The notes under the pieces are model-generated. The model saw nothing but the letters and a program-made list of their open reading frames with translations. It was not told the DNA's origin and did not search any database. From Gammaproteobacteria bacterium (GTDB lineage: Bacteria > Pseudomonadota > Gammaproteobacteria > SZUA-140), in NCBI GenBank assembly GCA_026981935.1, contig JALSIC010000010.1, positions 13,131-77,130 on the forward strand: a DNA stretch of 64,000 bases, read 5' to 3'. Shown piece after piece: positions 3,558 to 47,530 of this stretch. The position numbers and the translations under genes are program-made. Position 1 is the stretch's first letter; every line of letters starts with the position of its first letter.

Positions 3558-4100
3558 TTGAAGACGACAGAACACCTGGTGATCTCGGCACTGGGCGAAG
3601 ACCGGCCGGGCATCGTCAATGACCTGACCCAGCTCATTCTCGACTGCGCCTGCAACGTGGTGGACAGCCGCATGACGGTGCTGGGCGGGGAATTCGCCCT
3701 CATGCTCCTGGTCAGCGGCGCGGCAGCCGACATCGAGCGCCTGGAGCAGGCCCTGCCGGCGCTCGCCGGCACCCTCTCATTGACCCTGATCAGCAAGAAG
3801 ACCAGGCCGCGGCCACCGCAACCCGACCGGATTCCCTACCGGGTCCATGCCGTGGCACTGGATCATCCCGGCATCGTCCACCAGCTGGCACAGTTCTTCT
3901 CTTCCCGCCACATCAACATCGAGAGCCTGGAAACGGACAGCTATGCGGCGGCGCATACCGGCGCCCCCATGTTTGCCCTCACCATGCTGGTGAACGTACC
4001 GGGGGAAACGCGCATCGCGGCGTTGCGGGAAGAATTCCTGGGTTTCTGCGATGAACTCAACATCGATGTCACCATGGAACCGCTCCATCAAGGTGTCTGA
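3558..4100 (+). CDS. gcvR: Glycine cleavage system transcriptional repressor (tandem ACT domains)
   Basis: HLVISALGEDRPGIVNDLTQ and a second ACT repeat (VHAVALDHPGIVHQLAQ) match E. coli GcvR. Probable TTG start at 3558, 7 nt after the RBS AAAGGAG; the longer ATG ORF begins at 3513. It sits divergent to dapA and is followed by bcp, as in E. coli. Confidence 0.8.
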   Translation: MKTTEHLVISALGEDRPGIVNDLTQLILDCACNVVDSRMTVLGGEFALMLLVSGAAADIERLEQALPALAGTLSLTLISKKTRPRPPQPDRIPYRVHAVALDHPGIVHQLAQFFSSRHINIESLETDSYAAAHTGAPMFALTMLVNVPGETRIAALREEFLGFCDELNIDVTMEPLHQGV

Positions 4101-4639: not shown

Positions 4640-5110
4640 GACTGAATGCAGGCCCCGAGGCTCGGTATCTCCTTGTCATTTCGACCGAGGGGAGAAACCC
4701 TGTTTCAGCGGTTTCAGATTCCTCGCTGCGCTCGGAATGACAACTCATCTGTCATTGCGACCGCGCTTTCTTGTCATTTCGACCGAAGGGAGAAACCCTG
4801 TGCCAGCGGCCCGGATTCATCGCTGCGCTCGGCATGACAAGTCATCTGTCATTGCGACCGCGCTTTCTTGTCATTTCGACCGAAGGGAGAAACCCTGTGC
4901 CAGCGGCCCCGGATTCCTCGCTGCGCTCGGAATGACAAGTCATCTGTCATTGCGACCGCGCTTTCTTGTCATTTCGACCGAAGGGAGAAATCTTCCCCAC
5001 TGCCCCCAAGATTTCTCGCTGTACTCGAAATGACAGGGTTACTGCCATTTCTCGCTGCGCTCGAGCTGACAGATGTTACCTGGAAAGACAAACCCCCACT
5101 GAGGCCAACG
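4640..5110. repeat. Tandem array (~4.5 units, period 97-98 bp) of a MITE/REP-like element (family A: GTCATTTCGACCGAAGGGAGAAA ... TTCTCGCTGCGCTCGGAATGACAAG)
   Basis: Direct inspection: near-identical 98-bp units start at 4751, 4848 and 4946, each with internal inverted ends (GTCATTTCGA / TCGAAATGAC). Related single copies occur at 45434-45523 and 47465-47530. Confidence 0.85.
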
Positions 5111-14394: not shown

Positions 14395-14419
14395 GGCTTC
14401 AGTTCTTCGCTTCCTGTTC

Positions 14420-14815
14420 CTATGAAACAATACAGATCACTTCACCACCGTGGCCGGCTGCGCGCGCGGCGCGGTCCGTCATGACCCCCGCGGAGGTCGA
14501 GACGATGGCGATCCCCAGGCCGCCGTTGACCCGCGGCAATTCGTCCTTGCCGCGATAGGCACGCAGCCCGGGCCGGCTGACCCGCTGGATCTGCTCGATC
14601 ACCGGCCGCCCTTCGTGGTATTTCAGGGTAATGGTCAATTCCGGCTTCTTCTCGTCGCCGCCCACGGCATAGGCGGTGATATAACCCTCTTCCTGCAGCA
14701 CCTTGGCGATCGCCACCTTCTGCTTGGAAGAGGGCATGCTGACCTGAGCCTTCTCGGCGGCCTGGGCATTGCGGATCCGGGTCAGCATATCCGCGATGGG
14801 GTCATTCATGCTCAT
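14420..14815 (-). CDS. rpsH: 30S ribosomal protein S8
   Basis: [18 protein letters not shown]-terminus. Confidence 0.95.
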
Positions 14816-15009
14816 GATTCGTTTCCAATGATTGCTTCGTCTGTCAGATTATTAATGGTCTCATAATTGTCCATATCAAAATACGTAGCCCGGATGGAGT
14901 GGAACGTAATCCGGGTGTGGGGTTTTGCCGGCTGGTTTCCTGGATTGCGCTTTTGCAGCGCTTCATCCAGGCTACCGAAGCGGCGTACCAACAGTCGGAC
15001 CATATCCAT
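14812..15009 (-). CDS. Hypothetical 65-aa ORF inside an anomalous spacer of the spc operon; its stop overlaps the rpsH start (ATGA)
   Basis: The ORF is [65 protein letters not shown]. It has no recognisable family and lies in ~50% GC DNA flanked by ~65% GC ribosomal genes. It may not be translated. Confidence 0.3.
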
Positions 15010-15082
15010 TCAACTACGAGACTCTCAGTATGTCCGGGTCTATATCGCTGGGGTCACATCGGGCGGAACCGCATCTGGCGGC

Positions 15083-15388
15083 TCACCAGCTCGCCTTCAC
15101 CAGGCCCGGAATGTCGCCGCGCATGGCGGCCTCCCGCAGCTTGTTGCGTCCCAGGCCGAACTTGCGGTAATACCCGTGGGGCCTGCCGCTGAGCCGGCAG
15201 CGGTTACGCAGGCGGCTGGGACTGGAATCGCGCGGCAGGGAGTGGAACTTGCGCCACAGCTCGCTGCGCTCTTCTTCGCTGAGATTGGGATCCTTCAGTC
15301 TGCGTTTCAGCTCTGCGCGCCTGGCAGCGTACTTCTCTACCATGCGCCGACGCTTGAGTTCGCGATTGACCATTGAAACCTTTGCCAT
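15083..15388 (-). CDS. rpsN: 30S ribosomal protein S14 (long, non-zinc form)
   Basis: 101 aa, ...[26 protein letters not shown]...W. Confidence 0.95.
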
Positions 15389-15406
15389 AGGGCCACCTGT
15401 ATCGAA

Positions 15407-15946
15407 TTAATTTCTGAATGGAAAACTGAATGCCTCCAGCAGCGCCCGCCCTTCCTCGTCGGTCCTGGCGCTGGTGGTGATGGTGATGTCCAGCCCGCGC
15501 AGGGCGTCGATCTTGTCGTAGTCGATCTCCGGAAACATGATCTGCTCGCGCACGCCCATGCTGTAGTTGCCCCGGCCGTCGAATGCCTTGCCGCTCAGGC
15601 CGCGGAAATCACGGATGCGGGGGATGGCGATATTGATGAGACGGTCGAGGAACTCGTACATGCGCACCTTGCGCAAGGTGACCTTGCAGCCGATGGGCCA
15701 CCCCTCGCGAATCTTGAAACCGGCGATGGACTTGCGCGCCCGGGTCACCACCGGCTTCTGCCCGCTGATCATGGCCAGATCCGCCATGGCGTGTTCGATC
15801 ACCTTCTTGTCGCCCACGGCCTCACCCAGACCCATGTTGAGGGTGATCTTGGTGATTCGCGGCACCTGCATGACACTGCTGTAACCGAAGCGTTCCATGA
15901 GCTGCGGTACGACGGTGTCCCGGTAATGTTCCTGCAATCTAGCCAT
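15407..15946 (-). CDS. rplE: 50S ribosomal protein L5
   Basis: [23 protein letters not shown]-terminus. Confidence 0.95.
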
Positions 15947-45433: not shown

Positions 45434-45523
45434 GTCATTTCGACCCTCCCTCTGTCATTTCGACCGAAGGGAGAAATCTTGTTCCACCGCCTCAAGATTT
45501 CTCGCTGCGCTCGAAATGACAGC
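45434..45523. repeat. Family-A MITE/REP-like element, single copy
   Basis: GTCATTTCGACCGAAGGGAGAAATC...GATTTCTCGCTGCGCTCGAAATGACAGC; same sequence family as the 4640-5110 array. Confidence 0.8.
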
Positions 45524-47267: not shown

Positions 47268-47464
47268 GACAGCTCTCCTCATGTTGGGAAGAATATACCT
47301 GTCCAGGAGAGGACCGGCCCCTGACCATGATAACGCCATACTCCATTAAGCCTCCACCGCAAGCTTGCCTTACGGCCTTTCCAGCCCGGCATCCAGCGGC
47401 GCACCCGGATGGCGTGAAACGGAATCCGGAGAGAAACTCCTTTTTTATCCCGGGTTTGGCTCCA

Positions 47465-47530
47465 GATTTCTCGCTGTGCTCGAAATGACAGGGATACTGT
47501 CATTTCCCGCCGCGCTCGAAATGACAGGCT
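47465..47530. repeat. Family-A MITE/REP-like element, single copy
   Basis: GATTTCTCGCTGTGCTCGAAATGACAGGGATACTGTCATTTCCCGCCGCGCTCGAAATGACAGG. Confidence 0.8.

Follow-up and report, generated by a model that had tools for sequence, protein, structure and literature searches.

A recently inserted TA-flanked miniature element very probably accounts for the long rpsN–rpsH spacer in the spc operon of an uncultured gammaproteobacterium

The spc operon of an uncultured gammaproteobacterium contains an unusually long spacer between two of its ribosomal protein genes. In the window, the 64,000-nt stretch of DNA analyzed here, the upstream gene rpsN (ribosomal protein S14, 101 aa) occupies 15083..15388 and the downstream gene rpsH (ribosomal protein S8, 131 aa) occupies 14420..14815, both on the minus strand. 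Both genes appear in the list of open reading frames and in the gene table of an identical ENA contig, where rpsN carries a Pfam Ribosomal_S14 match. The spacer between them, 14816..15082, measures 267 nt. An initial annotation of this DNA had singled it out for its length and low GC content, and both observations hold: its GC fraction is 0.517, compared to 0.634 in rpsN and in rpsH each and 0.63 in the whole window, with values dipping to 0.40–0.58 over the spacer in 100-nt windows. The accompanying statement that the neighboring ribosomal genes all sit 3–40 nt apart does not stand, as the gene table of the identical contig contains gaps of 80 nt (S17–L14), 57 nt (L14–L24), and 43 nt (L24–L5). 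Among all these gaps in the ribosomal cluster, that between rpsN and rpsH is the largest by far.

Downstream of rpsH, the operon continues with the genes for L6, L18, S5, L30, L15, and SecY according to the gene table. No sigma-70-like promoter or intrinsic terminator was detected on either strand of 14400..15450. Rfam searches at the gathering threshold returned only four tRNAs in the whole window, and a search of the spacer at E ≤ 10 gave chance-level matches only (DUF3085 RNA, sX2; E > 5). The four tRNA genes (window 38798–40748, minus strand) look ordinary and presumably represent the usual tRNA cluster near tuf/secE/nusG, upstream of the ribosomal operons.

The makeup of the spacer becomes apparent when the window is compared with a near-identical strain. 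An exact look-up of the S14 protein led to contig JBPLXR010000058.1 of assembly GCA_054019195.1 (hereafter L195), which encodes an identical S14 protein, shares 99.3% DNA identity with the window along 4.3 kb of operon sequence, and has an rpsN–rpsH spacer of 88 nt versus 267 nt in the window. Its junction reads ...GGACATA|ATCTGACAG... at the very point where the window has TA, 177 nt, and a second TA. Written out around the insertion point, the empty site in L195 is ...GACCCGGACATA|ATCTGACAGACG... and the filled site in the window is ...GACCCGGACA-TA-(177 nt)-TA-ATCTGACAGACG..., such that filled minus empty amounts to exactly 179 nt, consisting of a 177-nt element and one duplicated TA. In the sense orientation of the element, the TA at its 5′ end lies at 15029..15030 and the TA at its 3′ end, located by alignment to L195, at 14850..14851; a single TA is found in the empty site (ACATAATCTG), versus one on each side of the insert in the filled site. 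This 2-bp duplication is demonstrated directly once, at the single empty site, and most other copies of the element described below just have a TA next to either end.

What remains of the spacer is native sequence. The 52 nt of its 5′ part (15031..15082, minus strand) align base for base with L195 with three substitutions, and the 34 nt of its 3′ part (14816..14849, minus strand) are identical in L195 and in the Logan contig L193. The latter segment leaves the rpsH translation-initiation region unchanged, as all 34 nt preceding the rpsH ATG, including a weak GGA Shine-Dalgarno sequence, are the same as in the empty-site strain.

The insert is not conserved across related spc operons, the comparison by which the initial annotation had proposed to gauge it: in addition to its absence from the close relative L195, it is missing from the rpsN–rpsH spacer of 80 more distant relatives, in which 9 to 210 nt separate the two genes. 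In L001, the closest relative at the species level (S8 85% identical), the spacer measures 94 nt and does not hold the element, and the more distant relatives support a spacer that would originally have been short. Two Logan contigs from SRR7968108 stop within the element, one from each side, as assemblies do at repeats. The contig on the S14 side (L196, positions 1657–1747) carries the first 91 nt of the element in the form of the copy L102a, with 3 differences from the window copy; either the spc-operon copy differs in the SRR7968108 population or the assembler switched repeat copies. Cut-and-paste excision normally leaves a footprint. As the single TA at the empty site looks like an unoccupied target, and excision would leave such a footprint, an insertion in the lineage of the window is a simpler reading than a loss from L195.

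The inserted segment has well-defined boundaries and a distinctive fold. Its body comprises 177 nt (14852..15028, with the minus strand as the sense strand in the alignments; GC 0.51), is the exact segment that L195 is without, and matches 25 other copies at 72–94% identity. It is bounded by imperfect terminal inverted repeats of 18 nt. The left repeat, CTGAGAGTCTCGTAGTTG (15011..15028, minus strand), forms a sharp 5′ boundary common to full-length copies and pairs in the predicted fold with the right repeat, CAATTATGAGACCATTAA (14852..14869, minus strand), which forms an equally shared, sharp 3′ boundary and is complementary to the left repeat at 12–13 of 18 positions; on the minus strand, three mismatched positions could pair as G-U. 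All full-length copies have the ends TA-CTGAsrGTCTCGTAGTTG...CAATTATGAGACCmTTAA-TA (in short form, CTGAsrGTCTCGTAGTTG...CAATTATGAGACC, bordered by TA), and similarity drops off abruptly beyond them. By eye, a TTGATA-17 nt-ATTAAT arrangement at the 3′ end of the element resembles a weak sigma-70 promoter whose −10 hexamer does not have the conserved A at position 2; no claim is made for it.

As RNA, the sense strand of the element is predicted to fold as a single long hairpin (−65.8 kcal/mol; z = −5.1 for a 181-nt core, none of 200 shuffles being as good); the antisense strand gives −66.8 kcal/mol (z = −3.7), and a larger 296-nt region scores z = −2.2 against shuffles. The two hairpins that the initial annotation had drawn on the mRNA-sense strand both recur in these predicted folds. 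The first, CCUGGAUGAAGCGCUGCAAAAGCGCAAUCCAGG (CCUGGAU...AUCCAGG; 14939..14971, minus strand), is the most conserved part of the element, with a stem invariant in 18 of 18 aligned copies. The second, CCCGGAU(13 nt)AUCCGGG (14889..14915, minus strand), belongs to the RNAalifold consensus and has a stem kept in 16–17 of the 18 copies, without compensatory changes. Across the same 18 copies, RNAalifold retains the terminal stem together with both internal hairpins. The covariance analysis that had been proposed for the folded leader returned no compensatory signal among these 18 copies, which are very similar to each other (covariation term +0.45; any double change in 2 of 42 pairs).

The element is dispersed over many loci. 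An invariant 19-mer taken from a three-way alignment was used to scan a metagenome collection, followed by blastn and an nhmmer profile. Besides the single copy held by the window, this search recovered 25 copies on 24 contigs in differing gene contexts, a lower bound given that retrieval needed the exact 19-mer. The contigs comprise 23 from the JGI metagenome Ga0256839 and one from an NCBI metagenome-assembled genome (MAG; GCA_054017855.1). About 80 of the 108 metagenome matches to the 19-mer, which encodes LDEALQ, were set aside as coding or chance hits. Collections of plasmids, phages, and viruses contained no match to the element. Where a copy lies between co-directional genes, about 10 are in sense and 2 in antisense orientation, small numbers that derive from a crude ORF/GC3 caller corrected with pipeline gene tables; by the same crude caller, at least 12 copies lie within 80 nt upstream of a co-oriented start. 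As the GC3-based caller was wrong at two or more loci when held against the pipeline gene tables, the sense bias (about 3:1) is to be read as suggestive only.

Several copies depart from the full-length form. Six are without the left ~50 nt (L144 1839–1969, L173 10943–11070, L094, L150, L105, and L138), and all six start near the same point, GTYCGGTAGCCTGG. Two of these left-truncated copies are bordered by long direct repeats of flanking DNA; the repeat in L144 is perfect over 41 nt, and that in L173, matching at 24 of 25 nt, takes in the start codon and ribosome-binding site of the gene downstream. Such direct-repeat-flanked truncated copies do not fit simple TA-duplicating transposition. 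In L105 (~3990–4050) and L150 (~4800–4860), another hairpin repeat (CCGGAATCCAGGrAGAArCGCA...) is found ~60 nt downstream of the truncated copies; its likeness to the CCYGGAT/ATCCRGG internal stems of the element may indicate a related or composite repeat family. Finally, 26 nt elsewhere in the window (47404–47429; GCACCCGGATGGCGTGAAACGGAATCCGG) are 88% identical to the CCCGGAT hairpin of the element, with E = 0.01 in a small database, a match that may be due to chance or may be a remnant.

We therefore read the spacer as an ordinary 88-nt spacer into which a 177-nt noncoding MITE (miniature inverted-repeat transposable element) has recently inserted with a TA duplication, carried along as a tolerated, co-transcribed passenger, and assign this reading a probability of roughly 90%. 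Bacterial MITEs have been defined by terminal inverted repeats, target duplications, the absence of a transposase, long RNA stem-loops, and open reading frames fused to chromosomal frames (PMC3184786). The element is small and holds no transposase gene, its only open reading frame being a 65-codon chimera discussed below. It has paired ends, CTGAGAGTCTCGTAGTTG and CAATTATGAGACCATTAA, a TA duplication revealed by comparing the filled site with the empty one, copies at 25 or more unrelated loci besides that in the window, and a long stem-loop fold. The initial annotation had raised a foreign insertion into an essential operon as one alternative, and this is the part of it that has fared best: the insert is precise, carries its TA duplication, is absent from a 99.3%-identical strain, and recurs at these many unrelated loci.

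How such an element would have arrived can be outlined. A DDE transposase that recognizes the inverted repeats and targets TA would have moved it in trans, and the element would have inserted at a TA in the native 88-nt spacer, duplicating that TA. Elements of the IS630/Tc1-mariner group, the usual source of such a duplication, have inverted-repeat ends and characteristically insert at TA and duplicate these 2 bp; some IS5-group elements also give 2–3-bp duplications that contain TA. The TA target and 2-bp TA duplication seen here agree with the IS630/Tc1-mariner pattern, and the mobilizing transposase is probably of that kind, which we offer as a lead and not as a result. The family is named solely from the TA duplication because no autonomous element with matching repeats was found: 1.4 Mb of collected loci together with the window contained no further credible matches to the terminal repeats (up to 3 mismatches in 16 nt), and the plasmid, phage, and viral collections yielded no partner either. 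Once in place, the copy would be transcribed within the spc operon mRNA. The downstream genes from L6 to SecY must be expressed and no terminator intervenes, so the element would have to be transcribed through. The rpsH start, itself unchanged, would then be preceded at a distance of about 34 nt by the long hairpin of the transcribed element. The insertion would be of no use to the operon but tolerated, its effect being neutral or mildly deleterious; a recent, tolerated passenger is the simplest reading.

The alternative that survives best, although we consider it unlikely, is that this copy of the MITE has been co-opted, its co-transcribed hairpin altering the processing or stability of the spc mRNA (for example, through RNase III or RNase E) and so uncoupling the proximal part of the operon from S8 and the distal part. 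The near-perfect, long hairpin on the mRNA-sense strand is what such a role would call for, and there are precedents: in Neisseria, transcripts that contain Correia elements are cleaved by RNase III, and ERIC sequences affect mRNA decay by exposing mRNA to RNase E (PMC10969869, PMC3184786, PMC2649163). The tendency of copies to lie in sense orientation within 80 nt upstream of genes also favors co-option, and counts against a purely neutral passenger, which would not predict an orientation preference; yet that count comes from small numbers and the crude caller. Against co-option, no covariation is seen, and near-identical strains differ in carrying the insertion, a polymorphism indicative of recent arrival instead of a selected function. 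A broader version, doubtful and a shade less probable still, takes up the apparent preference of copies for the sense orientation, for sites some tens of nucleotides upstream of genes, and for operon interiors: the whole family would act as a portable module for mRNA processing or stability, and in the spc operon of strains that have it, S8 and the distal genes would be expressed apart from L14–S14. The rpsN–rpsH junction may also be a natural break point of spc coupling outside enterobacteria, as unrelated palindromic inserts are found there in other lineages (L028 and L052, below).

Far less probable than co-option is that the insertion supplies a real micro-protein translationally coupled to rpsH. 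As the initial annotation had described, a 65-codon open reading frame (14812..15009, minus strand) ends in a TGA that overlaps the rpsH start codon (ATGA), and it has no recognizable family, with no Pfam family above threshold. This overlap, and the fact that gene callers predicted homologous frames in three other contigs, speak for a product. The frame is, however, chimeric: the MITE supplies its ATG and 52 codons, and its last 12 codons and stop come from the native spacer, where the empty site of L195 has no open reading frame at all, the same frame being without a start codon and meeting a stop just upstream. The ATG (15009) sits one base past the left inverted repeat and, as read from the sequence, is not preceded by a recognizable Shine-Dalgarno sequence. 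A protein search with the 65-codon frame found three homologues only (44, 53, and 71 aa), all of them copies of the repeat in unrelated contexts, and a cluster look-up gave no names. Two of them could be located: P0003 (L081) is flanked by a ccmH/cycH-type gene and a thioredoxin gene, and P0004 (L082) by genes for an oxidoreductase and a heparinase II/III. Ribosomal genes are near neither of them, and thus the similarity belongs to a dispersed DNA repeat and not to a gene.

Nor is there conservation at the codon level, the outcome that the initial annotation had held would argue against a protein. Of 20 full-length copies, just 4 carry a frame that runs open through the element. In the largest subfamily, ATG is replaced by ATA, a 1-nt indel is present, and the frame stops after 12–15 codons; further copies are frameshifted midway, which accounts for the 44-aa length of P0004; overall, the lengths of the homologues (44–71 aa) are set by frameshifts and flanking sequence. 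GC content by codon position is 0.53/0.38/0.55, with a third-position value (GC3) of 0.55 versus 0.75–0.84 in the neighboring genes. We judge the frame spurious, apparently a by-product of the insertion in which an ATG of the element reads out into the native spacer. The predicted 65-aa protein and its database relatives P0002–P0004 would accordingly be annotation artefacts of a repeat.

It is about as improbable that the element is a repeat of non-MITE type, such as a REP/BIME-type palindrome dispersed through a RAYT tyrosine transposase. REPs are GC-rich palindromes of ~20–40 nt that produce no target duplication. The element shares with them a palindromic structure, intergenic placement, and dispersal, and the same genomes do possess a separate, short REP-like repeat, CGCTCGAAATGACAGG; but the element is of a different make: it measures 177 nt, is bounded by defined terminal inverted repeats, and has duplicated a TA, as the empty site shows. 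The REP-like repeat is unrelated to the MITE. Its copies in the window, at 4672–5037, 45451–45523, and 47477–47528, are arranged as inverted pairs and, with a period of ~98 nt, as a tandem cluster, giving 10 matches to the core where 0.08 are expected by chance, and the 26-nt partial match at 47404–47429 mentioned above adjoins these repeats. The exact 16-mer recurs in the MITE-rich Ga0256839 contigs, often adjoining MITE copies (loci L102, L151, L181, L144, L145, L170, and L179), and this sharing suggests that the organism of the window and that of Ga0256839 are the same or closely related.

The weakest reading, that the spacer is a lineage-specific structured leader of the rpsH mRNA such as an S8 autoregulatory operator mimicking the S8 site of 16S rRNA, starts from the facts that S8 represses the spc operon in Escherichia coli and that a strongly structured RNA lies directly upstream of rpsH, and is hardly credible given that the structured part is missing from the 99.3%-identical strain, so that an S8 operator cannot lie in it, as well as from 80 relatives with spacers of 9 to 210 nt, that the same sequence occurs at unrelated loci, and that neither an Rfam match at the gathering threshold nor covariation was found. 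The native 88-nt spacer is itself unstructured (z = +0.5) and not conserved among relatives, the native spacers of 16 of them being unalignable. The lineage-specific regulatory module envisaged by the initial annotation falls on the same grounds.

What appeared to be a regulatory leader or a micro-protein of an essential operon is thus better described as the insertion of a mobile element. Highly expressed essential regions are usually poor in repeats and have been called "repeat deserts," and the MITE resides inside just such a region, the essential and highly expressed spc operon (PMC3184786). Its presence there means that expression of rpsH in this lineage evidently tolerates 179 extra structured nucleotides in the leader. 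Strains that are 99.3% identical but differ in having the filled or the empty allele constitute a natural experiment on how a co-transcribed MITE hairpin affects the expression of an operon.

Long rpsN–rpsH inserts are also seen in other gammaproteobacterial lineages: L028 (2791–3000; a Thiotrichaceae MAG), L052 (2889–3000), and L041 (2815–3000). In L028, the 210-nt spacer contains an unrelated palindrome of ~160 nt with perfect 15-nt inverted ends, TGCAGGAGTGCAAAA and TTTTGCACTCCTGCA (z = −7.6), and in L052 a hairpin at the junction is closed by GAGAAAAAGAGACAAG and CTTGTCTCTTTTTC. Palindromic, MITE-like insertions at the rpsN–rpsH junction appear to be recurrent and tolerated.

Among known systems, the closest parallels to the MITE of the spc operon are the TA-flanked bacterial MITEs of the Correia type (CREE) in Neisseria and of the ERIC type in enterobacteria, Photorhabdus, and Xenorhabdus (PMC3184786, PMC10969869, PMC2649163). 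Like the present element, these measure ~100–180 nt, have terminal inverted repeats with TA at both termini, encode no transposase, and are dispersed between genes. They are likewise often co-transcribed, form long RNA hairpins, and contain fortuitous open reading frames that fuse with flanking frames. The host differs, being here an uncultured gammaproteobacterium of 63% GC with an S8 that shares 85% identity with that of a MAG labeled "Gammaproteobacteria bacterium" and 78% with that of Arhodomonas. Promoter-like ends, IHF sites, and RNase III effects do not figure among the features described here for the present family. The element is not known to resemble the Correia or ERIC consensus in sequence, and on this footing we regard it as a putative new family within a familiar class, that of MITEs with a TA duplication.

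The IS630/Tc1-mariner elements share with it the TA target, the 2-bp TA duplication, and the inverted-repeat ends; the difference is that the connection is drawn from the target duplication alone, with no transposase gene or full-length element bearing these ends having been found. The S8 translational operator of the E. coli spc operon offers the third comparison. There, as here, the operon is the same and S8 is encoded by a gene downstream of the structured RNA. The E. coli operator, however, sits at the start of rplE and not ahead of rpsH, whereas the structured RNA described here is a mobile, strain-specific element that is found at many unrelated loci.
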